From assembly GCA_038244815.1 (NCBI GenBank), contig JBBRTB010000005.1:92936-156935 (forward strand): a stretch of DNA of 64,000 bases, read 5' to 3'. A program made the translations under genes and the position numbers. The notes under the pieces are model-generated. The model saw only the letters and a program-made list of their open reading frames with translations. It had not been told where the DNA came from and did no database searches. Source of the DNA: Thermoanaerobaculia bacterium. Lineage in GTDB: Bacteria; Acidobacteriota; Thermoanaerobaculia; Gp7-AA8. Positions within the stretch are counted from its first letter, which is position 1. Each line of letters opens with the position of its first letter. This document shows, one piece after another, positions 21,346 to 56,845 of the stretch.

Positions 21346-22307
21346 ACTCGACGTCAACGCCGAAGAATTTCGCCGTCATCGGAGTGGCCGGGTATGTTGC
21401 GCCGCGGCACCTGAAAGCGATCCAGGACACGGGAAACCGTCTCGTCGCCGCGACGGATCCGCACGATGGCGTGGGCATTCTGGACCGCTATTCGTTCGAC
21501 GTGAAGTACTTTCGCGAGATCGAACGGTTCGACCGGCACCTGGACAAGCTCCGACGCGGACCGCAGGAGCAGCGCGTCGATTACGTCAGCATCTGCTCGC
21601 CGAACTATCTGCACGACGCCCATGTCCGGCTGGCGCTGCGAAACGGCGCCACCGCTCTCTGCGAGAAGCCGCTCGTCATCAATCCCTGGAATCTCGATGC
21701 GCTCGCCGAGCTGGAGATCGAGACCGGAAGGCGCGTGTTCACGGTGCTGCAATTGCGCGTGCATCCGTCGCTGATGGCGTTGAAGGAGCGGCTGGCACGA
21801 GCCAAAGGGGGGCACCGCGTCGAGCTCGCCTATGTGACCAGCCGCGGACCGTGGTACCACGTTTCGTGGAAGGGAGCGGAGGATCGTTCGGGCGGTCTGG
21901 CCACGAACATCGGCATCCACTTCTTCGATCTGCTGATGTGGCTGTTCGGTCCGCTGCGAAAGAGTGCGGTCTTCGTGAGGACGCCGTTGCGGATGGCCGG
22001 CGCTCTCGAGCTGGAGCGGGCCGAGGTTCAGTGGTTCCTCTCGGTGGATGGCGGGGATCTTTCGAGCAAGCCCATACCGGGAGGACAAACGACGCATCGC
22101 TCGATCACGGTCGACGGCGAGGAGATCGAGTTCACGGAAGGCTTCACCGATCTCCACACCCGCGTCTACGAGATGACGCTGGCAGGCCAGGGATTCTCGA
22201 TCGATGACGCCAGACCGTCGATCGCGCTTGTCCACCGAATCCGCACGGATGCGGTTGTTTCAACGAGCGCCGCACATCGGACCTGGGCGGACCAGATTTC
22301 GCGATGA
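21342..22307 (+). CDS. Gfo/Idh/MocA-family oxidoreductase (WbpB-like UDP-GlcNAcA 3-dehydrogenase)
   Basis: N-terminal Rossmann FAVIGVAGYVAPRHLKAI, EKPL motif (CEKPLVINPWNLDA). Start overlaps the MarR stop (ATGA). Confidence 0.75.
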   Translation: MNSTSTPKNFAVIGVAGYVAPRHLKAIQDTGNRLVAATDPHDGVGILDRYSFDVKYFREIERFDRHLDKLRRGPQEQRVDYVSICSPNYLHDAHVRLALRNGATALCEKPLVINPWNLDALAELEIETGRRVFTVLQLRVHPSLMALKERLARAKGGHRVELAYVTSRGPWYHVSWKGAEDRSGGLATNIGIHFFDLLMWLFGPLRKSAVFVRTPLRMAGALELERAEVQWFLSVDGGDLSSKPIPGGQTTHRSITVDGEEIEFTEGFTDLHTRVYEMTLAGQGFSIDDARPSIALVHRIRTDAVVSTSAAHRTWADQISR

Positions 22308-22446
22308 ACCACGCTCGACTTCCCCTCCGTGTGCAACAGGTCGTGAGGAGTATCCAGTCCTGACTCAGGTGCGGCCAGAAGAGCTGGGAGGTGGTCTGCT
22401 GACTGCCGAGGTTTCCAGCAAACCCAACGAAGCCGATGGTGGCGTC

Positions 22447-23754
22447 GTGGGAAACCTTCGCGCACGATTTCGCAAGGGGGTCTTCTGGAGTGTTGCCGCT
22501 GCTGTCTCGTCGTCCGGTTTCAATTTCATCTTAAGCATCAGTGTCGCTCGACTGCTTGGACGGGAACTGTTTGGTCAATTCGGAATGGTTCAAAGCACGA
22601 TCGCGACACTTGCGGGTATTGCTCAGCTCGCAATGGGCTACACGGCCACGAAATTCGTAGCCGAATTTCGTTCGAGCGACCCGGTGCGTGCCGGTCGAGT
22701 CATCGGACTTTGCTCGGTCGTATCGCTTGTAACCGGCTCGGCGGCGGCCGTGGCGCTCTGTGCATCGGCACCTTGGCTCGCCACCTCCTCGTTGAAATCG
22801 CCGCAGCTCGCCGGCAGTCTGCAACTGGCTAGCGTGATGGTGTTTTTTATGGTCCTCACCGGCCATCAGATGGGGGCTCTCGCCGGCCTTGAAAACTATC
22901 GATCGCTCGCCATGCTTGCACTAGTGTCGGGAGCTTCGACTCTAGTCGCCGCATCGCTTGGTGCCATGATGTGGGGGCTGAGTGGCTCGATTGTTGGGTT
23001 GGTGATCGGATCAGCGATTCAATGGGCCCTCTTCAGAAATAGGTTGAATGCGGACTGTGAACGCCACGGTATACCTATTTCAAGGCAAGATCTTGGAAGC
23101 GAACGCGAAATACTCCTGTCGTTCGCAGTACCGGCAGCATTGGCAGGGATGTCTTCCATGCCGGCACTGTGGTTTGCGAATGCGTTTCTAGTCCGTCAAC
23201 ATGACGGGTATGCGCAGATGGCACTCTATACGGCAGCATTCAGTCTTCGATCGTTAGTCTTCTTCCTGCCGAGCCTTCTGAACCGCGTCAGCATGTCCCT
23301 TATGAATAATCACCGTGGGCTACGCGACGCGCAGTCATACCGACGCGTGTTTAAGGTCAACCTGATCTCATCGACTCTCAGTGTTGTCACCGGGGGGGCA
23401 ATCGTGGCTCTGTTGGCAACTCGCTTATTGCTGGTATTCGGGAAAGACTTCGCGTCGGGGCTGCCCGTTCTGCTCGTGCTGTTGTTGGCAGCCATGTTAG
23501 AGGCTATTGCCGGGTCTCTCTACCAGGTCGTGCAGGCGGAATCGCAAATGTGGTCATCGATGTTCATGATCGTGATCCCGCGCGATGTGCTAATAGTTGC
23601 ATTGGCATTCTTATGGACGCGCACCAACGGTGCCGTTGGCCTTGCTGCAGCGTATACCGTTGGATGGTCTGTAGCGTCACTACTGACAGCGCTACTCGTA
23701 ATACGAATCGGTAGGAGCTCGCTATGGCAGGTAACAGGAGTAGTTAGAGAATGA
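22447..23754 (+). CDS. polysaccharide biosynthesis / O-unit flippase (Wzx, MOP superfamily); start uncertain
   Basis: About 12 predicted TM segments across 22.5-23.7 kb. The GTG at 22447 is the first start after the upstream stop. ORF track opens at 22204; a later start in 22500-22600 cannot be excluded. Confidence 0.6.
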   Translation: MGNLRARFRKGVFWSVAAAVSSSGFNFILSISVARLLGRELFGQFGMVQSTIATLAGIAQLAMGYTATKFVAEFRSSDPVRAGRVIGLCSVVSLVTGSAAAVALCASAPWLATSSLKSPQLAGSLQLASVMVFFMVLTGHQMGALAGLENYRSLAMLALVSGASTLVAASLGAMMWGLSGSIVGLVIGSAIQWALFRNRLNADCERHGIPISRQDLGSEREILLSFAVPAALAGMSSMPALWFANAFLVRQHDGYAQMALYTAAFSLRSLVFFLPSLLNRVSMSLMNNHRGLRDAQSYRRVFKVNLISSTLSVVTGGAIVALLATRLLLVFGKDFASGLPVLLVLLLAAMLEAIAGSLYQVVQAESQMWSSMFMIVIPRDVLIVALAFLWTRTNGAVGLAAAYTVGWSVASLLTALLVIRIGRSSLWQVTGVVRE

Positions 23755-24653
23755 GTTATGGCGACATCGCGCGGGGTACGCTCAGGGCCATCTGGCGTCA
23801 CATGCCCCGAAGGCTACAGGGGGTCCTGTTCAGTGGATTTAGCTATGCTATGAGGAAGCGTAAGATACTCGCTGAAGTTGATGGGCTACGTTTCGCACTT
23901 GATCTGGGCGAGGGTATCGATCTTCAGGTCTATCTAGGAAGCTTTGAACGAGATGTTGTCCGTGCGATCGAAGTGTTGTGCGAGCCGGGTTCCTGCGCGG
24001 TCGACGTAGGGGCAAATATCGGCGCTCACACCATCAGGATGAGCCGGCGCGTCGCGGCTAGAGGGCGAGTGATCGCGTTTGAACCAACGGTATTCGCATA
24101 TACGAAGTTGCTGAAAAATATCTCGTTGAATCAAGCGGACAATGTCACACCCGTCATGGCAGCCGCATCGGACCGAGATCGTGATCTAGAGGAGATCAGC
24201 GTTCGGTCGCGGTGGCCGACTCATGGATCCGCAGAACTTGACATCGCGTCAGTTCCGCTTTGGTGCCTCGATCATTGGCTGGACCGACACGGAATTGATC
24301 AAGTGCGTCTGATGAAAGTGGACGTTGACGGTGAGGAAGCTGCTGTCCTCAGAGGCGGGGGCAACATGATCAAGAGGTCGCTTCCGGTGATCATTCTCGA
24401 AATCGGCGCGTATCACTTCGAGCGGTCTGACTCAAACCCGGTAGCATTCCTCGCGGCGACCGGGTACCGGTTTTGGGATCTGTCAACGCTAGTCGAATAC
24501 CCGGATGAGGGCGCCATCCGCTCGCGGCTGCCAGAGCATGACCCAGACAAGGAATTATCTGTGAATCTGCTGTGTGCTACCCATATTCACGCGATCGCTG
24601 ACTTGCGGGCCTACACGGGGCGTCATGCGCTCGTCTCGGGTCCTTCGGCATAG
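23751..24653 (+). CDS. FkbM-family SAM-dependent methyltransferase
   Basis: VDVGANIGAHTI...VIAFEP motif region. Start overlaps the Wzx stop (ATGA). Confidence 0.75.
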   Translation: MSYGDIARGTLRAIWRHMPRRLQGVLFSGFSYAMRKRKILAEVDGLRFALDLGEGIDLQVYLGSFERDVVRAIEVLCEPGSCAVDVGANIGAHTIRMSRRVAARGRVIAFEPTVFAYTKLLKNISLNQADNVTPVMAAASDRDRDLEEISVRSRWPTHGSAELDIASVPLWCLDHWLDRHGIDQVRLMKVDVDGEEAAVLRGGGNMIKRSLPVIILEIGAYHFERSDSNPVAFLAATGYRFWDLSTLVEYPDEGAIRSRLPEHDPDKELSVNLLCATHIHAIADLRAYTGRHALVSGPSA

Positions 24654-24700
24654 GCCGACACAAGATAAGTGCGAGCGGGCATTGGCGGTAACGGACTGCA

Positions 24701-25762
24701 ATGAAGATCGTCGTTTCGTATAACAAGAGTGGCGAGGAGTCGCTCCTCTGGGCGAAAGAGATTGCCGCCGCGTCGGACGCGGATACGACGTTCATTCCCT
24801 TCGATCACGGCGCGAAGCTGGGCTCCTTGCGTTATTCGACCGCGATAGCTCTCGATCGCCTCTATCAGAGCGGCGAGCCTGGCTTGCGACATCTGTATCG
24901 GGAGTTTCAAGGAAGCATAGTCGAGAACGCCGCTGATGCTATTATCGTGGCTAACGCACCGCCGTACCACCCCGACTTTTTGCGTAAGTTGCCGGTGTAT
25001 AAGGTGCTGTATAGCGCCGATGATCCAGGTGCGACGTATCTCATCAACATCCCGTACCTTCACGCATACGACCACGTGTTCTTTGTTGCGCCGACATATA
25101 GCGCGGATATGGACATGCACGAAAAGATGCAATACGCGGGCAAAGTGAACGCGGACTGGCTGCCAATCTCTGTCTTCGACTTCGAACATGCGCCCGACCG
25201 GACAGAAGATCAGGTCTTCGGGCGTAGACGGGACATCGACATCATCTACATCGGCAGTTTTTGGCGGCAGAAGCTGCCGATACTGGCGGCAGTGAGGCGG
25301 GCCTTTGGCCGCCGGTTCCTTCTGCATGGGTTCTTCGGGCTTAAGCATAATCTCTTCATGAACGCGAGATACGGGTTCGGGGGCTGGGTGACTCCGGTCG
25401 GGCTCGCGGAGCGCGTGGCTTTCTATCAGCGCGCGCGGATCGGCCTCAATATTCACTGGAATGAACACGGCCTCGGGAATCAGCGGCTGTATCACCTACC
25501 GGCCAACGGCGTGATGCAGATTTCGGACTGCGCCGCCGATCTGCATCGGATCTTCGAGCCCGGGCGGGAGATCGTCGGTTACCGCGGCGCTGACGACCTC
25601 ATCGACAAGTTGAAATACTTTCTCCAACACGATGATGAGCGCGAAAGGATCGCCCGGCAGGGCTATCGCAGAACGATGCGCGATTATCGGTTCGCGGATG
25701 TGATGCGTCGCGCGGGAACACTCATCGAGCGAGGTATGGCCCGTATCGGATGGACTCATTGA
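24701..25762 (+). CDS. CgeB-like glycosyltransferase (Glyco_trans_1_2 C-terminal domain)
   Basis: C-terminal ARIGLNIHWNEHGLGNQRLYHLPANGVMQISD...LIDKLKYFLQHDDERERIARQG resembles CgeB / GT1-type domains. Confidence 0.6.
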   Translation: MKIVVSYNKSGEESLLWAKEIAAASDADTTFIPFDHGAKLGSLRYSTAIALDRLYQSGEPGLRHLYREFQGSIVENAADAIIVANAPPYHPDFLRKLPVYKVLYSADDPGATYLINIPYLHAYDHVFFVAPTYSADMDMHEKMQYAGKVNADWLPISVFDFEHAPDRTEDQVFGRRRDIDIIYIGSFWRQKLPILAAVRRAFGRRFLLHGFFGLKHNLFMNARYGFGGWVTPVGLAERVAFYQRARIGLNIHWNEHGLGNQRLYHLPANGVMQISDCAADLHRIFEPGREIVGYRGADDLIDKLKYFLQHDDERERIARQGYRRTMRDYRFADVMRRAGTLIERGMARIGWTH

Positions 25763-27300
25763 TGCGGTCGTCGTCTCCGCATCGTCACGGCGTCACACTG
25801 ATCGCATCGTGCGGGTCGCTGCTCTCTGCGACTCTGCTGAGCCTCGTGCTCCTGTCGATGGCGGTGCAAACGAGCGTGTTGCTCGCGCATCCTGATGAGC
25901 AGGCGGTCGGCATCGGCCTGCTGCTGCAGATGGCTCTCGTGGGAGCATTCTGGTGGTGGTCGACGTCTGCGAGCGGAACCCTTCTCAACGGGCCGTTTGT
26001 CGTGCTCGTGGCCATCTTCTTCTGGCACTCCTCATTTCTCGCCGCGCGCCAATTACACGTGAACGACATCTTTCTCTACACGGGACCGGTGTTTGCCTAC
26101 GGAGAGAATCAGATACCACGCGCCGTGGCGCTGGTGTCCCTGTCGATGGCCTGCGTGGTATTAGGCAGTGTAGTGGCTTTCTGGCAACGGGGACGGGAGG
26201 TCGGTCGTGCCCATGGGCGAGTGCCTGGCGCGGTCGGTGAGCCGGCTTTTGGGCGGTATGCGTTCTTGCTGTTCGCAGTTTACATACTGATCACCATCAC
26301 GTATCTCGCGAGGGAGGGCATTGGATCGGCTCAGGATTATCTTGATATCTACACGCAGGCGTCTGGAAGTGTGACGTATCGTCTGTATCAGATGGGCAAG
26401 TTTCTCGGTGTGGCCATCATTGCGCTGCTGGTCGCGTCGGCCCGAAGCAGGCTGACCATCGCCATTGCCTACGGAGGAACGGCACTCTTGATCCTCGCGA
26501 GCGCTCTGACCGGGGCGCGTTCGATGCCGTTCCTCTTTGCCGTAACGCTCCTCGTTGCCATCGACTACTTCAGGAGGCGAGTCCCGCTGGTTGCGATCAT
26601 TGGGCTCGCTTTCGCGGCTGCCGCGGCGAGTTGGATCATGGTCCAGACGCGCGCCGTCGGTGTGGGCCTGCAGATGTTGACGTCCGTAAACACGGAACAC
26701 CCCATCTCACTTTGGCACATCGTCTGGAATACTGGAGCGACTCTCAACACGGTCTTACGAACGATGACCTTCATGGCCGCGACCGGGCCGATTCACGGCC
26801 GTTCGTTCGCGGAAGCGCTCGTGTATGTGATTCCCGGGCCCCTGGTTAAGCTGGTCGCGCCGGGATGGATGGTACTACCGCCGAGCCAATGGTTGATCAT
26901 CCAGTCTCCGGATGTCCCCGACGGCGCAGGGCTGGGCTACTCGCTTGTGGCCGAAGCATTTCTGAACTTCGGATTGTCGGGCAGCCTGATCTTCGCGTTC
27001 ATCGGATGGCTCGTGGCCTATTTGTTTTTTGGCTTCCGCTTCAAGCGCGACGTCTTCGCGGGTCTTCAGTCTCTCAATCTGGTGGTTCTTTTGTCACTGC
27101 AGTTGCGAAATGACAGCATCACCTATGTCCGCGTTCTCGTCTGGGGCTCGCTGGTGATCTGGTCTGCGCAGTGGATCAATGCCCGGGCGCGCCTTGGGAT
27201 GACCATTCCAGGCGAGCGATTTGCCAAACATCTGGGCCGCCACGGCAGAAGGCTTTTGCGGCGGACAATCCCGGCCTCATCGTCAACCACGGCACCATGA
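25750..27300 (+). CDS. polytopic membrane protein, Wzy-like O-antigen/EPS polymerase candidate
   Basis: At least 10 hydrophobic segments and no soluble-domain motifs. Its position between glycosyltransferases is consistent with a polymerase. Assignment is by topology only. Confidence 0.5.
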   Translation: MDSLMRSSSPHRHGVTLIASCGSLLSATLLSLVLLSMAVQTSVLLAHPDEQAVGIGLLLQMALVGAFWWWSTSASGTLLNGPFVVLVAIFFWHSSFLAARQLHVNDIFLYTGPVFAYGENQIPRAVALVSLSMACVVLGSVVAFWQRGREVGRAHGRVPGAVGEPAFGRYAFLLFAVYILITITYLAREGIGSAQDYLDIYTQASGSVTYRLYQMGKFLGVAIIALLVASARSRLTIAIAYGGTALLILASALTGARSMPFLFAVTLLVAIDYFRRRVPLVAIIGLAFAAAAASWIMVQTRAVGVGLQMLTSVNTEHPISLWHIVWNTGATLNTVLRTMTFMAATGPIHGRSFAEALVYVIPGPLVKLVAPGWMVLPPSQWLIIQSPDVPDGAGLGYSLVAEAFLNFGLSGSLIFAFIGWLVAYLFFGFRFKRDVFAGLQSLNLVVLLSLQLRNDSITYVRVLVWGSLVIWSAQWINARARLGMTIPGERFAKHLGRHGRRLLRRTIPASSSTTAP

Positions 27301-48992: not shown

Positions 48993-49730
48993 ATGTCTTT
49001 GCACCATCTGAAAAGCCTCAACCGCGACGCGCTCGCCGATTTTCTGGCGGAGAATCTCGCTCATCTGGTCGAGGACGAGGCCCTGGCCGTGCTCGAGAAC
49101 CCCTACGTGACGCCGCGGGTCTGTCAGGCCATCGCCCAGAACCAGCGGCTGTCCGCGTTTTACTCCGTGCGGGTGAAGCTCGTCGGGCACCGCCAGACTC
49201 CACAGGCGCAGGCGGTGCGGCTCGTTCACTACCTCTACTGGCCCGACCTCGTCCGGCTGTCGGTCGACGTGACGGTCTCGGCCCAGGTGCGGCGTGCCAT
49301 CGACACCATCCTGCTGACCCGGGTCGACAAACTCTCGCTCGGGGAACGGATCGCCGCCGCGCGCCGCTGCAGTTCGGCGCTGATCAAGGTCCTCCTCTTC
49401 GATCCCGATCCGAAGGTCTTCGCCTCGCTGCTCAACAACCAGCGGCTGCGCGAGGACGATCTGCTGCTGATCGCCAGCTCACACAACGCGGCCGCGGAGC
49501 AGCTGGCCATGATCGCCGGCGAGAGAAAGTGGGGTAGCCGCTACAGCGTGCGCAAGGCGCTGGTGCTGAATCCGATCACGCCGCGATCGGTGGCGGCCTC
49601 GCAACTCCGCTTTCTCTCACGCCGCGATCTGGTCGGCATCCATGAGAATCCCGCCACCTCCCTCTATCTGAGGCGATGCATCGAACGTCTGCACGAGTCC
49701 ATCCGGACCCTGCAAGGCACGGTAGAATGA
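48993..49730 (+). CDS. helical-repeat (LRV/HEAT-like) hypothetical protein
   Basis: Recurrent about 24-aa helical units (ENPYVTPRVCQAIAQN; LNNQRLREDDLLLIAS; LNPITPRSVAASQLRF). Confidence 0.5.
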   Translation: MSLHHLKSLNRDALADFLAENLAHLVEDEALAVLENPYVTPRVCQAIAQNQRLSAFYSVRVKLVGHRQTPQAQAVRLVHYLYWPDLVRLSVDVTVSAQVRRAIDTILLTRVDKLSLGERIAAARRCSSALIKVLLFDPDPKVFASLLNNQRLREDDLLLIASSHNAAAEQLAMIAGERKWGSRYSVRKALVLNPITPRSVAASQLRFLSRRDLVGIHENPATSLYLRRCIERLHESIRTLQGTVE

Positions 49731-50557
49731 GGTTCCCGATGCCCGAACAGGAGCCCCAGGCGCACTCCGAGCTGGCGTCGTTCGGCGAGGACCTCAGGCG
49801 CGAACGCGAGATCCGCGGCATTTCGCTCAAGGAAATCGCCGACGCGACGAAGATCAGCAAGCGATTTCTCGAAGCGATCGAGCGCAACGACCATCGCACG
49901 CTGCCGGCGCCCGTCTTCACACGCGGTTTCGTCCGCGAATACGCGCGCTACCTCGGCCTGAGCTGCGAGGAGATGGTCAACCGCTACAACTTCGCCGCCG
50001 CGGGCGACGACCGGATCGAGAAGAGCGCGCATCTGGACCGTCTGACGCAGCCTCCGCCGGACATTCCCCGCGAGCCTCCCAGGAAGCGGTCCATCCCGCC
50101 GCCGTACGCACGGATCGACCGCGGCGTGTATCTGCTGATCATCATCGTGGCCGCTCTCGCCGCCGTGGCCTGGTGGGCCGTCGAGCACAAACATCGCTCG
50201 GAGCTCGACAGCCCGCGGGCCGAGGTGACGCGTCCGGCGCCGGTGCGGCACAGGGTCGTGACGCCCCCTCCGCCGGTGGTGGCCGCGCCGCCTCCGCCGA
50301 TGCGCATGGTCATCGAGCTGACCGACGACTGCTATCTCGATCTCGACGTCGACGGTCAGAACGTGCTGAAAGACGACTATCGGCGGGGGATGCGTGATAC
50401 GTTCGAGGCGAAGCAGAGCTTCGATTTCAAGCGTATCGGCAATGCCGCCGGCGTCATCCTCATGATCGATGACAAACAGATTCCGCCACTGGGTGGCGAC
50501 GGTCAGGTGATCAAGAATCGCGTCTTCGACCGTAAGACCCTGGAGAGACTGCCGTGA
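49726..50557 (+). CDS. RodZ-like protein (N-terminal XRE-type HTH, one TM helix, Pro-rich linker, C-terminal DUF4115-like domain)
   Basis: HTH (GEDLRREREIRGISLKEIADATKISKRFLEAIE), TM (VYLLIIIVAALAAVAWWAV), then a PPPPVVAAPPPP linker. Confidence 0.7.
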
Positions 50558-51645
50558 GCACCACGCCCGGAGAATTGACCGCGGCGCAGGTCATCGCGCA
50601 GATCGAGGGCGAGGCCTACGAGCGGGAAGTGCTGCTCACGCTGGCTCGCGGATTCCTGCCCCTGCCGCAGGAAGAACTCATCGCCGTCCTTTCGTATCTG
50701 ACCCAGACCCCTGACGAGGAGATCTCGACGCTGGCGCGAGGCTCGCTCAACGACATCCCCGCGCGGTCGGTTCACGGATTCGCATCGAACGAGAACGCCT
50801 CGCCCGAGTATCTGAAGCTGCTCACGCGTGCCACCAGCGACGCGCACATCCTCGAGGCCCTCATCCGCAACCGCACCCTCACCGATGACGCCGTGGTCGA
50901 GCTGGCGCGCCGGGCTGAGGGAGCGGTGCAGGAAGTCATCGTCATCAATCAGTCGCGCATCCTCCGCTCGCCTGAGATCCTCGACGCCCTTCTGGATAAC
51001 CCGCAGATCACACAGGACACCCGACGCCGGGCCCTGGAGACGCGCGAGGAATTCTTCGAGAAGAAAGCGCGCATCGAAGAGCTGAAGCGCGTTCTCGCGG
51101 AGGAGGACGTGATCGACCAGACCATCCCCGACGATGCCATCGCCGACCTCCTCGAACAGGTGCCGGCCGAGCAGACCAGCTTGTTACCGGCGGTCGGCGA
51201 AGTCTCCATCGAGGGCATGGAGGAAACCAAGAAGAAGTCGATGTGGGCCATCCTGGGCTCCATGAGCGTGTCGGAGAAAGTGCAACTGGCTTACAAGGGC
51301 AACAAGAGCGTCCGCGCCATTCTCGTCCGCGAGCGAAACCGGTTGATCTCCTCCGCCACGATGCGGAATCCCCGCATGACGGACAGCGAGGCCGAACAGA
51401 TCGCCGGCATGCGCGATGTGGGCGAAGATGTGCTGCGCATCATCGGAATGCGCCGTGACTGGATGGCGAAATATCCGGTAGCAATCGCCCTGGCCAAGAA
51501 TCCGAAAGCTCCGATCGGGGTTGTCCTGCCGTTGATCAATCGTTTAAGCTTACGGGACTTGAAGGGGTTGAAAGACGACAAGGGTGTGAGCGAAGCAGTT
51601 CGTTCGAACGCCAGGAAGCTCTACCAGATGCGTCAGAAATCGTGA
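50554..51645 (+). CDS. helical-repeat (HEAT/LRV-like) hypothetical protein
   Basis: Repeated SPE(Y/I)L..LL.NP motifs. Its last 43 codons lie inside the 133-bp direct repeat, copy 1. Confidence 0.5.
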   Translation: MSTTPGELTAAQVIAQIEGEAYEREVLLTLARGFLPLPQEELIAVLSYLTQTPDEEISTLARGSLNDIPARSVHGFASNENASPEYLKLLTRATSDAHILEALIRNRTLTDDAVVELARRAEGAVQEVIVINQSRILRSPEILDALLDNPQITQDTRRRALETREEFFEKKARIEELKRVLAEEDVIDQTIPDDAIADLLEQVPAEQTSLLPAVGEVSIEGMEETKKKSMWAILGSMSVSEKVQLAYKGNKSVRAILVRERNRLISSATMRNPRMTDSEAEQIAGMRDVGEDVLRIIGMRRDWMAKYPVAIALAKNPKAPIGVVLPLINRLSLRDLKGLKDDKGVSEAVRSNARKLYQMRQKS

Positions 51646-51649
51646 TCCC
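51517..51649 (+). repeat. 133-bp direct repeat, copy 1 (3' end of gene 50554..51645 plus 4 nt)
   Basis: Matches 53340..53472 with 5 mismatches (about 96% identity). Confidence 0.9.
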
Positions 51650-51686
51650 TGCCCGTCCTTGCCAGGCTTGACGCCGTGGACCCCGG

Positions 51687-53285
51687 ATGCCATTCTCCGC
51701 CTCGATGCAAAACGAGCCCGTGGAACCTGTCCCAATCGCCGAATCCGAACTCGCGGCGGAACCGGAATTACCGGTGTCTCTCAGTCATCTTGCTCATGTT
51801 CTCGTGAAGTACCGGACGGCGATCATTCTGGCGGTAGGGAGTTGCGTGCTGGCGTATCTGATCGTCGCGCTGGCTCTCTACCTCTTTGCTCCGGCCTTCC
51901 GAGTCACGACGCAGGCTTTCCGTCTCGACTTCGCAGGGGCGGGACAGGGTCATTATCCGAACGGGATGGCTTTCAACATCATTGAAGTCATCAACGAGCC
52001 TGTTCTCGCACACGTCTGGCAGGCAAACCATCTGGGCAACTATCTGGCCTTTGGTGATTTCAGCCGGGCGGTGTACGTCCTGGAGTCGAACCGTGAATAC
52101 GAATTGATTGCCTCCGAATACCAGACAAAGCTGGCCGATCCCAAGCTGTCGGCCGTGGACCGGGAGAGGCTGCAGAAGGAGTTTGCCCTCAGGATCGATA
52201 GCGTGGTCAAGAACGAATACGCAGTGTCGTTCAAGCGCTCGGTGGGGATGCGCTCCATTCCCGAGCCGCTGGCGCGCAAGGTGTTGGTGGATATTCTCGC
52301 CGAATGGGCGGACTTTGCGGTCAACCAGCAGCACGTGGTTTCGTATCAGGTGTCGATTCTGTCGCCGGCGATCCTGAGGCCGAGCCCGACGGAACCGAAC
52401 GGAATCGTTGCAACAATCGAGATTCTGAGACAGAAGGCCAACAGCGTCCTGGACAACCTCGCTGCCATGCGAGGCCTGCCTGGAGCGAATCTGGTCCGGA
52501 CGCCGACGGACCCGATCTCGCTGGAAGAGCTTCGCCTTCGTCTCGACGACATCGTCCGCTTTCAGCTCGAGCCGTTGCTGACCGTGGTTCTGAATTCCTC
52601 ACTGGCAGGCGATCGTGCCAGGGAGGCTGCCTTCCTCGAAAACCAACTGGCCCACGATCAGCGTCGTCTCGACGCCACGGAGCACGAAGCCATCGCGGCA
52701 CGAGACGCCATCACCGCCTACGAGCAGCCCGGCGCCGGCCCGGCCGCGGGCGACCGGTCGACGGCGAGATCATCGAACGATCAGGCCAAAGGATCGGATG
52801 CAGTCGTCCCGCAGTTGAACGACACGTTTCTCGATCGTCTGATCACTCTCAGCGGCAGAAGCGCCGATGTTCAGTACAGGCAAAAGCTCGTCGACGAATA
52901 CCGCAAAGCGGTCCAGGCGGCCATCCCTTTCCAGCAGGCCGTCGCGTACGATACGCAGTTGCTCGAGTCCATGCGGAAACCTGCCGGCAATCCGGTACAC
53001 CTCGATGGCCCCGCCGTTCTCGCCCAATTGGATCAGACACGAACCGAAGTAGGGCAGCTGATCGCCAAAACGAATGAGCTTTATCAGACGATCTCGCGCA
53101 ACATGACCGCCTCCACGCAGCTTTTTACGCTGAGTGGGCCACCGACGACGGGGACGTTACGCGCCGTCAGTCTGTCGCAACTCGCGTTGTACGGGTTACT
53201 TGTCTTCCTCCTCTCGATTCCCGTCGTGATCGCCGCATGTCTTGTCCACAACCGCATTCAGGAGGAAGAAGCAGCCGACCACTAA
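51687..53285 (+). CDS. polysaccharide co-polymerase / chain-length determinant (Wzz-like, PCP topology)
   Basis: TM helix near the N-terminus (IILAVGSCVLAYLIVALALYLF), about 430-aa periplasmic region with predicted coiled-coil segments, and a C-terminal TM helix (LALYGLLVFLLSIPVVIAACLV). Confidence 0.65.
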   Translation: MPFSASMQNEPVEPVPIAESELAAEPELPVSLSHLAHVLVKYRTAIILAVGSCVLAYLIVALALYLFAPAFRVTTQAFRLDFAGAGQGHYPNGMAFNIIEVINEPVLAHVWQANHLGNYLAFGDFSRAVYVLESNREYELIASEYQTKLADPKLSAVDRERLQKEFALRIDSVVKNEYAVSFKRSVGMRSIPEPLARKVLVDILAEWADFAVNQQHVVSYQVSILSPAILRPSPTEPNGIVATIEILRQKANSVLDNLAAMRGLPGANLVRTPTDPISLEELRLRLDDIVRFQLEPLLTVVLNSSLAGDRAREAAFLENQLAHDQRRLDATEHEAIAARDAITAYEQPGAGPAAGDRSTARSSNDQAKGSDAVVPQLNDTFLDRLITLSGRSADVQYRQKLVDEYRKAVQAAIPFQQAVAYDTQLLESMRKPAGNPVHLDGPAVLAQLDQTRTEVGQLIAKTNELYQTISRNMTASTQLFTLSGPPTTGTLRAVSLSQLALYGLLVFLLSIPVVIAACLVHNRIQEEEAADH

Positions 53286-53339
53286 CCAGCCTCCTGTCAA
53301 GACGAGCTCCGCGTGATCGCTAGCCTCGTCCCTCCCATA

Positions 53340-53472
53340 GGGGTTGTCCTGCCGTTGATCAATCGCTTAAGCTTACGGGATTTGAAGGGATTGAAAGACG
53401 ACAAGGGTGTGAGCGAAGCAGTTCGTTCGAACGCCAGGAAGCTCTACCAGACGCGTCAGAAATCCTGATCCC
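53340..53472 (+). repeat. 133-bp direct repeat, copy 2
   Basis: Retains an in-frame 51-codon remnant ORF (GTG 53313..53467). It ends immediately before the ATG of the J-domain gene. Confidence 0.9.
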
Positions 53473-54129
53473 ATGAAGGTTAACTACTACGACGTTCTCG
53501 GCGTTGACCGCTCCGCCACGGAGCAGGCCATTCGCGATAAATTCCGCCAGCTGGCGCGGGAGCACCATCCCGATCGCTACAAAGGCCCCGACAAGGCCGA
53601 GGCGGAAAGGAAGTTCCAGACCCTCACCGAGGCCGTGAACATCTTGACGAATCCGGCCCGTCGCAAGCAGCACGATGTCGAGGTGGGCTCGGGCGGGCCG
53701 AAGGCCACCACCGACCTCACCCAGGTGGCCAAGGTCTATCTGGCCAAGGGAACGAAGGCTTTTCAGGAGGGCAACATCCGCGAGGCCTACGAGAACCTCG
53801 ACATGGCGGTGAAGCACAACCCCAACGACTCCAAGGCTCTCTTCGCGCTGGCCCGGGTGGCCTCTCGCAGCCCGGCCTGGTACCGGCAGGCCGTACAGGC
53901 CATCGAGGCGGCCGTGCAGAAGGAACCGATGAACCCGCAATACCTGAAGGAGGCGGGGTTGATCTGCAGGAAGGCCGGTCTGCCGGCGAAGGCCGAGCGC
54001 TACCTCGAAGAAGCCCTGAAATGGGACAAGGACAACTTCGAGATCCAGAGCGCGCTGGCCGAGTTGAGGCAGGGAAAGGGCGAGACGAAGGATTCCGGCA
54101 AGGGTCACGGTCTCTTCCGGAAGAGCTGA
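53473..54129 (+). CDS. J-domain (DnaJ-like) protein with TPR repeats
   Basis: YYDVLGVDRSATEQAIRDKFRQLAREHHPDR (J domain with HPD), followed by TPR-like helices. Confidence 0.8.
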   Translation: MKVNYYDVLGVDRSATEQAIRDKFRQLAREHHPDRYKGPDKAEAERKFQTLTEAVNILTNPARRKQHDVEVGSGGPKATTDLTQVAKVYLAKGTKAFQEGNIREAYENLDMAVKHNPNDSKALFALARVASRSPAWYRQAVQAIEAAVQKEPMNPQYLKEAGLICRKAGLPAKAERYLEEALKWDKDNFEIQSALAELRQGKGETKDSGKGHGLFRKS

Positions 54130-54133
54130 TCGC

Positions 54134-54892
54134 GTGGAAGTGCAAGCACAGGGACTGACTCACGTCGGCCGGCAACGGCAGCACAACGAGGACTCCTTCC
54201 TCGTCGAGAGCGACGCCAGGTTGTTTCTCGTGGCCGACGGCATGGGCGGTCACGCCGCGGGCGAAATCGCGTCGCGCATCGCCGTCGATGCGATCTCCGA
54301 ATTCATTCTGCACACCAAGGAAGACGACGGGACCTGGCCGCACGCGTACGACGAGAATTTCAAACGCTCGACGAACCGGTTGATGGCCGCCGTGCGGATG
54401 GCCAACACCCGCGTCCTCGAAGCCATGCGCAAGGACGCCCGGCTGCGCGGGATGGGCACGACCGTCGTGGCCTGTCTCGCCGACGACGACGTGATGTCCT
54501 TCGCGCACGTCGGAGACTCCCGGGCCTACCTCATCCGCGACAACGCCCTCAACCGCATCACCAACGATCATTCCTGGGTCTTCGAGCAGGTGCAGGCAGG
54601 TATGCTCACCGAGGCGGAGGCGGAGAAGCACCCGCTGCGCAACGTGATCACGCGCGCCCTGGGTGGCGCGCTGCAGGTCACACCGGACGCCTCGGAGATC
54701 AAGACGAAACCCGGCGACGTGTTCCTGCTCTGCTCGGACGGGCTGACTGGCATGGTTCCCGAAGATGAGATCCTGCGAGTGGTGACCGAGAGCCCGTCGC
54801 TCGACGAAGCCTGTCAGAAACTGATCGACACCGCCAACGAGCGCGGCGGCCTCGACAACATTACCGCCATCCTAGTGAAGACCATCTCATGA
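54134..54892 (+). CDS. PP2C-family Ser/Thr protein phosphatase
   Basis: GRQRQHNEDSF...LFLVADGMGGHAAGEIAS...CSDGL motifs. GTG start. Confidence 0.85.
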   Translation: MEVQAQGLTHVGRQRQHNEDSFLVESDARLFLVADGMGGHAAGEIASRIAVDAISEFILHTKEDDGTWPHAYDENFKRSTNRLMAAVRMANTRVLEAMRKDARLRGMGTTVVACLADDDVMSFAHVGDSRAYLIRDNALNRITNDHSWVFEQVQAGMLTEAEAEKHPLRNVITRALGGALQVTPDASEIKTKPGDVFLLCSDGLTGMVPEDEILRVVTESPSLDEACQKLIDTANERGGLDNITAILVKTIS

Positions 54893-55116
54893 ACGTTCGA
54901 ATCGACTATTGCGGCGTCTGAAACTACCTGCCCCGGGCCTCCAGTCTGGCGGCCGAGATCAGGAAGGAGCTGGGAATCGACAGCCAGCTCGTGCGTGGCA
55001 GCGGCGGCATCTTCGTCGTCACGGCCGATGGAAAACAGATCTTCTCCAAGAAAGACCAGGGGCGCTTCCCATCCGAGAAGGAGATCCTCGATCAGTTGAA
55101 GGCGTTGGGCGCGTAG
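54889..55116 (+). CDS. selW: SelW/Rdx-family selenoprotein (75 aa) with in-frame TGA at 54919..54921 read as selenocysteine
   Basis: ATG 54889 overlaps the phosphatase stop (ATGA). Translation: MNVRIDYCGV-U-NYLPRASSLAAEIRKELGIDSQLVRGSGGIFVVTADGKQIFSKKDQGRFPSEKEILDQLKALGA. This carries the CxxU redox motif at residues 8-11, YxxRA after it, and the GSGGxF and GRFP motifs characteristic of the family. A candidate hairpin lies 15 nt after the TGA (ggcctcc agtct ggcggcc, 54936..54954). ORF callers split this gene. Confidence 0.7.
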
Positions 55117-55196
55117 GGCGCCGCGTAGTCGGGCCTGCCGGAGCCGCGCTCGCAGGAACGGCTCTCGGACTGCTGATCGCCCGCGGCCGTCGCGGG

Positions 55197-55202
55197 TAGA
55201 AT
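55197..55202 (+). promoter_or_regulatory. -10-like TAGAAT 8 nt upstream of the TTG at 55211
   Basis: cgcgggtagaat gagaacga ttg. Confidence 0.25.
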
Positions 55203-55210
55203 GAGAACGA

Positions 55211-56845
55211 TTGCATCCTGACCTCGACGAGCTTCGTCCGAAGCTGAAAGAAATCCTCTATGACTGCGCGGTGGACATCCGCGCCACAAAGGCCGCGCTC
55301 TACCTGCTCGACAGCGAGACGAAAAAATTCGAGCTGGCCACCGAATTCGGGTTCCGCTCGGCGGTGCGGCAGTCGGCGAATGCCAACGATCCGATGGTTG
55401 AGAGGTGCTCGCGTGGCCGCTCGCCGTTCTACGTGAACAATCCGGCCACCGACCCGCGTCTGTCCGAGCTGTTGTTCGAGGCGTCGACCGAGCGCATGTT
55501 GGGCGTTCCGCTGTTCTCACGCGGTCAGCTCGTGGGGTTCATCGACATGCGCGACAAAGCGCAGAATCAGCCGTTCGATCAACCCGATCTGGCCAAAGCG
55601 CAGGGCATCGCTGACCGCATCCTGGCGCTCTTCTCGACGAAGAACATCTGGAACCAGCGGTTCATCACCATGTCCGATTCGGAGATGGTTCGCCTGCCTC
55701 AGATTTCCGCGACGCCCGCGGAGTCCGAGGCTCCGTCACCGCGGCCCGGGGTGTCGCTGGCAGAAATGCTCACCGCTTCGCGCACGATCGCGGTGCGTCT
55801 GCGGGATCCGCGACCGCCCGACCCGATCGGATCCTCGGAACTCGCCGCGATCACCGATACGCTTCGGACGATGCTGCTGATGCCGGGAGCAATCGCCGTG
55901 GCGTTTTCAGCGACGGGGAGCGCGGGCGAAATCCAGGAGATCGCCTCGCGTGGAACGATGACCGAGGGCGCCCTCTCGGCCCTGCAGATGAAGCTGCAGA
56001 CCTGGCTCGACAAGCGCGGGGAGTCAGCCGGTCTTCTTCGCACAACCGTGCGCACGCCGCTCGGAGTGACCATGCCGCCGATCGCCGCCGCGCAACTGGA
56101 GAAGGTGTTTTCGGCCGCGGTGAGCGTACCGAATTTCCGCGGGCTGTACGTCACCGTCGCGTTCAGCGGCATGCCGGAGCGCAACACTCACGAGTTGCTG
56201 GGGGCCATGCTCATCCAGTTGCAGGCGAGCATCGAGTCGTCGGCCCTGCGGACCACGCTGCAGGACACACGCATGCGCATCGCCGAGCGTCTCGTCGAGC
56301 CCGAGCACGAGAATTTCCCCGATCTTCGCCGCCACTGCATGAGCGTCCTCGATCTCACCTCCACTTTTGCCAGACAACTCGGTCTCGGCGCTGCGGAGAG
56401 TGAGATCGCGCAACTGACCGCTCTGGTGCACGACTGCGGTATGCGCCTGCTCGATTACGACAGGCTCTACCGTAAGCGCGATTTGAACCATGACGAGCTG
56501 GAGCTGCTCAAAGAGCACGTCACGGTCGGTGCCTCCATCGTCGAGCCGCTCCTGGGACCGGACATCGCCCGGGCCGTCCTCAGTCATCACGAGCGCGTCG
56601 ACGGCGCGGGCTATCCGAACCAGCTTCGCGGGGAGGAGATCCCTCTGGCCTCACGCGTGCTGCAGATCTGCGACGCATACATCACCATCACCGATCCGGC
56701 CACGTATCAGATGCCCGAGACTCCCGACGAAGCCCTGGCGGCGATCCGCCGCGGAGGAGGCGCACAGTTCGACCGCGAGCTGGCCATCCGCTTCGAGGAG
56801 ATGATGCGCGCCGGTGTGCAGTCCACTAAACTCGCTACCCGATGA
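55211..56845 (+). CDS. GAF-domain / HD-GYP-domain signalling protein (putative c-di-GMP phosphodiesterase)
   Basis: N-terminal GAF-like region, then an HD domain (ALVHDCGM...) and the HD-GYP signature (HHERVDGAGYPN). TTG start at 55211; start uncertain. Confidence 0.75.
   Translation: MHPDLDELRPKLKEILYDCAVDIRATKAALYLLDSETKKFELATEFGFRSAVRQSANANDPMVERCSRGRSPFYVNNPATDPRLSELLFEASTERMLGVPLFSRGQLVGFIDMRDKAQNQPFDQPDLAKAQGIADRILALFSTKNIWNQRFITMSDSEMVRLPQISATPAESEAPSPRPGVSLAEMLTASRTIAVRLRDPRPPDPIGSSELAAITDTLRTMLLMPGAIAVAFSATGSAGEIQEIASRGTMTEGALSALQMKLQTWLDKRGESAGLLRTTVRTPLGVTMPPIAAAQLEKVFSAAVSVPNFRGLYVTVAFSGMPERNTHELLGAMLIQLQASIESSALRTTLQDTRMRIAERLVEPEHENFPDLRRHCMSVLDLTSTFARQLGLGAAESEIAQLTALVHDCGMRLLDYDRLYRKRDLNHDELELLKEHVTVGASIVEPLLGPDIARAVLSHHERVDGAGYPNQLRGEEIPLASRVLQICDAYITITDPATYQMPETPDEALAAIRRGGGAQFDRELAIRFEEMMRAGVQSTKLATR

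Follow-up and report, generated by a model that had tools for sequence, protein, structure and literature searches.

The SelW-like proteins are a standard family of bacterial selenoproteins with few cysteine homologs in organisms that use selenocysteine, Sec (PMC1794560). In the Sargasso Sea data, members with a CXXU motif and a selenocysteine insertion sequence (SECIS) inside the gene outnumbered every other selenoprotein family (PMC1088965). Those described by Zhang, Gladyshev and co-workers are small, carry the CXXU near the N-terminus and have the SECIS just downstream of the UGA in the coding sequence (PMC1088965, PMC1794560). The substrate of the characterised family members remains unclear (PMC1088965). 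A gene of this kind is located at positions 54889-55116 of a 64,000-nucleotide stretch of contig JBBRTB010000005.1 from a Thermoanaerobaculia bacterium, the whole of which is called the window here. It very probably encodes a SelW-like selenoprotein in which a UGA codon is recoded by means of a SECIS. The clade differs from the known SelW-like proteins in its origin from Thermoanaerobaculia (Acidobacteriota) metagenome-assembled genomes (MAGs), in a 19-nt candidate SECIS core that is near-invariant over 80 species, and in its position within a conserved DnaJ/TPR-PP2C-Rdx gene block.

The cysteine-type Rdx proteins with solved structures (Atu0228, which is 2FA8, and 2OBK, 2OKA, 2OJL, 2P0G and 3DEX) share the fold and the position of the redox motif with the present protein, and have 30-38% sequence identity to its modelled homolog P0001. 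They have a CxxC motif, approximately 103-108 residues, and neither an in-frame TGA nor a SECIS, whereas the present gene has CxxU, 75 residues, a TGA and a candidate SECIS. The same Pfam family includes the mammalian proteins selenoprotein W (2NPB) and MIEN1 (2LJK), with CxxU in SelW and CxxC in MIEN1 at the equivalent position, but both are far more distant (for mouse SelW, E = 0.025 by sequence and a template modelling (TM) score of 0.68). The eukaryotic SECIS is found in the 3' untranslated region and has another architecture (PMC1088965, PMC13188914), whereas here the element is inside the coding region.

The gene is a new and mis-annotated member of the long-established SelW/Rdx family, real but ordinary, and nothing here alters existing knowledge on selenoproteins or recoding. 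The main value lies in the correction of annotation, the gene being invisible to stop-to-stop open reading frame (ORF) calling in the window. A literature search found no paper joining Thermoanaerobaculia with selenocysteine; the clade-level observation and the linkage to a PP2C gene are modestly new.

The Rdx reading frame and its protein family

The gene and its parts are listed by position in the window.

54889-55116, + strand: coding sequence of the probable SelW-like/Rdx selenoprotein, 75 residues, from ATG to TAG through a TGA at codon 11 (translation, Pfam/NCBIfam matches, third-position GC content)
54910-54921, + strand: predicted redox motif Cys8-Gly-Val-Sec11 (TGC GGC GTC TGA), aligned with the CxxC of the solved Rdx proteins 2FA8 and 2OKA
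54919-54921, + strand: in-frame TGA, putative selenocysteine codon (shared by 82 of the 84 homologous loci)
54936-54954, + strand: candidate bacterial SECIS core hairpin GGCC-U-CCA[GUC]UGG-C-GGCC, within codons 16-22 (R-A-S-S-L-A-A)
54944-54946, + strand: apical loop G-U-C, 22 nt past the UGA, with G and U invariant and a third base of C or U

The start codon, ATG at 54889-54891, shares bases with the TGA stop codon (54890-54892) of the upstream PP2C gene, the two forming an ATGA. Translation gives MNVRIDYCGV, then the TGA at 54919-54921, then NYLPRASSLAAEIRKELGIDSQLVRGSGGIFVVTADGKQIFSKKDQGRFPSEKEILDQLKALGA and the TAG at 55114-55116; around the TGA and at the C-terminus this reads MNVRIDYCGV-TGA-NYLPRASS...ALGA-TAG. 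The original prediction, made from the sequence before the present analysis, had given the ATG at 54889, the TGA at 54919, the TAG at 55114, the length of 75 residues and the overlap with PP2C, and each of these was found again when the sequence was re-read. It was also right that the ORF track breaks the gene and lists an out-of-frame ORF of 96 amino acids (aa) at 54909-55199. The only other entry in the mechanical ORF list at this locus is a 41-aa tail fragment of the gene (54991-55116).

The 96-aa ORF is the longest uninterrupted ORF at the locus, and an antisense ORF of 41 aa facing the Rdx gene (54924-55049, - strand) has a high GC content at third codon positions (GC3) of 0.86, so that either might be taken for the real gene. 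However, the GC3 of the 96-aa ORF is 0.50, compared to 0.71-0.87 in the genes of the window and 0.83 in the Rdx frame, and its frame contains at least one stop codon in 70 of the 83 homologous loci. It is the Rdx frame that has strong family matches, and the suggestion that one of the other two ORFs is the gene can practically be dismissed. The high GC3 of the antisense ORF may do no more than reflect the codon periodicity of the Rdx gene on the sense strand.

For profile hidden Markov model scans the TGA was read as Cys and curated cut-offs were applied. The protein scores 67.7 bits against Pfam Rdx (PF10262; cut-off 22.6), aligned over positions 1-73 of the 74 in the profile, and is also above the cut-offs of two NCBIfam models, TIGR02174 'CXXU_selWTH' (58.5 versus 34.2) and the SelT/W/H model NF041051 (93 versus 88). 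The original prediction had assigned the gene to the SelW/Rdx family and had named alignment to PF10262 as a check, which has now been passed. Sequence searching of the PDB matched the bacterial SelW-related proteins 2FA8, 2OKA, 3DEX, 2OBK, 2OJL and 2P0G, followed by MIEN1 and mouse SelW. The CxxC or CxxU motifs of these matches align on residues 8-11, placing C8-G-V-U11 opposite the CTQC of 2FA8 and 2OKA. In this alignment the TGA occupies the position of the second Cys of the CxxC of solved Rdx proteins.

The fold was modelled with AlphaFold2 on the full-length homolog P0001, which is 75% identical to the window protein. The model has a predicted local distance difference test score of 93 and the order beta(3-8)-alpha(14-28)-beta-beta-beta-alpha, in which the motif sits between strand 1 and helix 1. 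When it was compared with the PDB using Foldseek, SelW-related proteins came first (TM 0.88-0.92, root-mean-square deviation (rmsd) 1.0-1.7 A; 2FA8 itself TM 0.89, rmsd 1.1 A), followed by MIEN1, SelW and thioredoxins. As judged from the family matches and from the model of this homolog, the gene product is a SelW-like protein of the Rdx family with a thioredoxin-like fold.

Conservation of the TGA at codon 11

A protein search identified 154 homologs, nearly all of which are 45-64 aa and begin right after the TGA position. Nineteen matches were inspected, including all four that are full-length, and these four have W or R at the TGA position. A locus scan of 185,579 species genomes identified 80 loci, all in MAGs of Thermoanaerobaculia or other Acidobacteriota. 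With the window, L002 and the ENA metagenome contigs L001 and L085, there are 84 homologous loci. Codon 11 is TGA in 82 of these, being the window, L002 and 80 out of 80 genome loci, and AGA in L001 and L085. The nearest related genomes have only 75-80% DNA identity to the window. No TGC or TGT was found at codon 11 in the 84 loci, and no Cys at this position in the 19 protein matches, in keeping with the few or no Cys homologs of SelW-like families in Sec users. The original prediction had put the TGA exactly at the U of a CxxU at residues 8-11, and both its alignment with the second Cys of the solved Rdx proteins and its retention across the loci agree with this.

In L001 (1075-1302, codon at 1105-1107; ERZ27285802) and L085 (875-1093, codon at 905-907; ERZ27315235), AGA (Arg) replaces the TGA. 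These are two different homologs in different contexts, and in both the hairpin is fully intact. The AGA codons could have come from two independent T-to-A changes, from recent loss of Sec or from an assembly artefact of the metagenome study concerned.

TGA is one base away from TGC and TGT, and Cys-type Rdx genes abound in other bacteria. An ordinary gene of the Cys type could be made to look like this one by a sequencing or assembly error. The presence of TGA in 82 independently assembled loci and of Cys in none of the inspected protein matches, the full-length ones included, leaves this explanation with next to no probability.

Codons 4-10 carry the mark of translation in this frame ahead of the TGA, being conserved as protein. 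Their amino acids are kept in 98-100% of cases while the codons vary synonymously (CGA/CGT/CGC/CGG, GAC/GAT, TAC/TAT, GGC/GGA/GGG and GTC/GTT). Of 83 loci, 82 have an Rdx frame whose opening 70 codons contain a single stop, at codon 11. It is possible to suppose that this TGA is a true stop, the gene being either a decayed pseudogene or one whose functional product is the C-terminal part, begun downstream. Public homolog calls of 62-63 aa do begin just past the TGA, and TGA is the commonest stop codon in the genome. Against this stand the ten codons before the TGA, conserved as protein in the same frame, and the nature of the truncated product, which would be without strand 1 and the entire redox motif. 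In the window the first ATG, GTG or TTG past the TGA is codon 35, leaving a fragment of 41 aa only. In a pseudogene, neither the identity of the stop codon nor the frozen hairpin would have lasted over 80 species. The probability of a true stop is therefore very slight.

Genome-wide reassignment of TGA was considered and rejected. In the window 32 of the 46 predicted genes, PP2C included, end in TGA, which indicates that the standard code is in use and that the TGA at codon 11 is a site of local recoding. A crude heuristic filter for a second TGA-interrupted gene in the window showed no Cys-x-x-TGA or TGA-x-x-Cys among the 25 of 69 candidates inspected; this filter also missed the Rdx gene itself, whose ten upstream codons have a GC3 of 0.70.

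It is clear that the N-termini of the homologs are systematically wrong in public annotation. Standard gene finders cut the gene short because its probable active-site selenocysteine is written as a stop codon. For example, the NCBI entries PYQ51798.1 (L021, QHVX01000080.1) and MBV8520356.1 (in the cluster of P0050) are 62-63 aa, begin past the TGA and are without the CxxU. The names given by NCBI to the cut-short homologs of these MAGs are nonetheless 'selenoprotein' or 'Rdx family protein'. JGI products render the TGA codon as W (L002:4124-4342), although the underlying DNA of L002 is TGA.

The hairpin downstream of the TGA and the proposed decoding

The bacterial SECIS criteria applied here are those of the bSECISearch model as summarised in PMC13188914. 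The model has an apical loop of 3-9 nt, an upper stem of 4-16 bp, 16-37 nt between the UGA and the loop, a minimum free energy (MFE) of -7.5 kcal/mol or lower, and a G within the first two loop positions followed by U, typically as N1-G-[G|U]-N-N2 (PMC13188914). The hairpin at 54936-54954 lies within all of these limits, with a loop of 3 nt, a stem of 7 bp, a spacing of 22 nt and an MFE of -9.5 kcal/mol. Its stem contains one U/C mismatch and starts 14 nt beyond the UGA (18 to 36, counting the U of UGA as 1). Formation of an A-U pair shrinks the 5-nt loop 'agtct' of the original prediction to the 3-nt GUC, and with its closing pair the loop reads A-G-U-C-U, fitting N1-G-[G|U]-N-N2. Among 83 homologs, 77 have an MFE of -7.5 kcal/mol or lower, and the loop sequence is GTC in 71 and GTT in 12.

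The hairpin is under selection at the RNA level. Over 81 distinct sequences its codons are frozen, with GCC in 80 of 81, TCC in 78 of 78, AGT in 80 of 80 and GCG in 81 of 81. Codon entropy is approximately 0 at codons 17-21, compared to 0.6-1.9 bits at comparable four-fold and six-fold degenerate codons in the rest of the gene. The mean is 0.14 bits inside the hairpin and 1.31 outside (Mann-Whitney p = 5e-4), and only 3 of 100,000 random subsets were as low.

The outermost pair, 54936-54954 (18-36), is formed between the third codon positions of Arg16 and Ala22 and shows compensatory changes: A-U in 43 sequences, G-C in 28, C-G in 2, U-G in 1 and unpaired in 9, with 31 compensatory cells. Across the stem, 98.2% of cells are paired, compared to 15-44% when the partners are slid by 1-3 columns, and the covariation score was reached by 0 of 500 shuffles. 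RNAalifold independently returns the same seven pairs. Folding of the window also suggests a lower stem (54927-54930 with 54960-54963), which the relatives have not kept and which was excluded from the element. The proposal of this hairpin as a candidate SECIS is borne out by the published criteria, the frozen codons and the one compensatory pair, with the proviso that the stem is imperfect.

It is proposed that decoding would proceed as follows. On meeting the UGA at codon 11, the ribosome would have ahead of it the hairpin, beginning 14 nt downstream and displaying the loop G and U 22 nt after the UGA. Acting as a bacterial SECIS, this would recruit SelB with GTP and Sec-tRNA(Sec), so that selenocysteine would be inserted in place of termination. 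The same nucleotides would double as the code for the conserved peptide R-A-S-S-L-A-A. In the protein, Cys8-x-x-Sec11 at the start of helix 1 would most likely cycle between the selenol/thiol and the selenenylsulfide, and the product is most likely a small thiol-dependent oxidoreductase, to judge from its family and motif.

There are several points against this interpretation. The fold model is that of the homolog P0001 and not of the window protein itself. The fold energy of the single sequence falls short of significance (z = -1.57, with 13 of 200 shuffles folding equally well; the sequence is GC-rich). Covariation is seen in just one of the seven stem pairs, the other six being essentially invariant and so uninformative for covariation, and the mutual relatedness of the homologs means that the shuffle-based and Fisher statistics overstate independence. 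At gathering thresholds Rfam has no match in the window, and no SECIS family was found at E <= 10 over 54850-55150. No SelA, SelB or SelD is present among approximately 40 ORFs of the window in NCBIfam and Pfam scans, and tblastn with the E. coli SelA, SelB and SelD gave no matches in the window and 82 loci (1.16 Mb).

Single-sequence folding has been dropped as evidence for a SECIS in such GC-rich DNA, and the comparative tests were used instead. The Rfam result does not weaken the functional claim, because the bacterial SECIS elements of different genes have little sequence resemblance to one another (PMC13188914). In comparison with the consensus bacterial SECIS of the bSECISearch model, the element falls within all the listed constraints, with no Rfam recognition and with a lower stem that is not conserved.

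The capacity of the genome to decode Sec we infer from the window and the related loci. A working SelB system is to be expected, because otherwise the stop codon and the frozen hairpin would have been lost from the 80 species that keep them. The 80 Thermoanaerobaculia and related species genomes of soil Acidobacteriota keep a UGA-encoded SelW-like protein with a near-invariant SECIS candidate, implying that the class uses selenocysteine. Acidobacteria have been listed among the phyla with selenoproteins (PMC1794560).

The UGA might instead be read through with a residue other than Sec, either Cys inserted by a selC* tRNA(Cys), a tRNA-Sec-like molecule that would itself depend on SelB and the hairpin, or the residue carried by an opal-suppressing allo-tRNA. 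The allo-tRNAs in Acidobacteria may be nonsense suppressors, and the selC* tRNA(Cys) of some anaerobes may suppress opal codons (PMC5389517); the present sequence data do not by themselves identify the inserted residue. However, selC* has been reported in Firmicutes, Thermodesulfobacteria, Nitrospirae and Proteobacteria, and not in Acidobacteria (PMC5389517), and the position concerned is the catalytic U/C of a family with well-documented bacterial Sec forms (PMC1088965, PMC1794560). General suppression would neither need nor preserve a SECIS hairpin. In addition, ARAGORN found no tRNA of any kind in the 64-kb window or in the 60 loci L003-L062. The chance that a residue other than Sec is inserted appears slim.

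The gene neighbourhood and the wider window

Two genes flank the Rdx gene.

54134-54892, + strand: upstream gene for a PP2C-type Ser/Thr phosphatase (Pfam PP2C_2 and PP2C), its stop overlapping the Rdx start
55211-56845, + strand: downstream gene with GAF and HD(-GYP-type) domains (Pfam HD_5, HD and GAF_2), an inconsistent partner given for context only

In 76 of the 77 loci where this could be tested, a PP2C gene on the same strand immediately precedes Rdx. At most 20 nt separate the PP2C stop and the Rdx start in 46 of 76 loci, all gaps are within 138 nt, and in 16 loci the two genes overlap by 4 or 1 nt. These short gaps and overlaps suggest that Rdx is probably co-transcribed and translationally coupled with PP2C. 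The GAF/HD-GYP-type gene follows Rdx directly in only 39 of the 66 loci that could be assessed. The original prediction had described a signalling neighbourhood made up of both genes; the link to PP2C is plausible, but the two genes together do not form a conserved neighbourhood.

The adjacency is part of a larger one-strand block of RodZ-like, 363-aa protein, DnaJ-TPR, PP2C and Rdx genes, conserved in the window (49676-54892) and in most of the 80 loci L003-L082, with 67-79 matches per gene over the 80 loci. The more divergent homologs L002 and L085 have other gene contexts. In L001 the spacer between PP2C and Rdx (1003-1075) contains short tandem repeats (gttcttagttcttagttgttagttgttagg ... 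taagaactaagaactaagaactaagaact) forming a long inverted repeat, at a place where the window has the 4-nt overlap.

It is conceivable, if rather unlikely, that the selenoprotein is a dedicated partner of the operon-linked PP2C, with a selenium-dependent redox switch that controls Ser/Thr dephosphorylation or is controlled by it. The suggestion comes from the conservation of the DnaJ/TPR-PP2C-Rdx block across the class and from start and stop codons that overlap or nearly do so. Were it true, bacterial SelW-like proteins would gain the definite role in the cell that they have so far lacked. The near-universal and tight linkage to PP2C is in any event a testable lead to the function of these proteins.

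Between the 363-aa and DnaJ/TPR genes, the window contains an ORF of 532 aa (51687-53285, + strand) with a rather low GC3 of 0.72 and no Pfam or NCBIfam match. These two genes adjoin in the related loci where both were found. A homolog of the 532-aa ORF was seen in one related locus only (L070), approximately 6.9 kb off and on the other strand. From this distribution, the ORF appears to have been inserted in this genome alone.

The remainder of the window consists mostly of a polysaccharide-biosynthesis cluster (approximately 10-49 kb) and housekeeping genes. The GC content of positions 22001-27000 is 0.57-0.58, compared to approximately 0.63 elsewhere. This low-GC run holds genes for a Wzx-like flippase, an FkbM methyltransferase, a glycosyltransferase and a Wzy polymerase, and has the usual appearance of an O-antigen or exopolysaccharide cassette that is exchanged horizontally.

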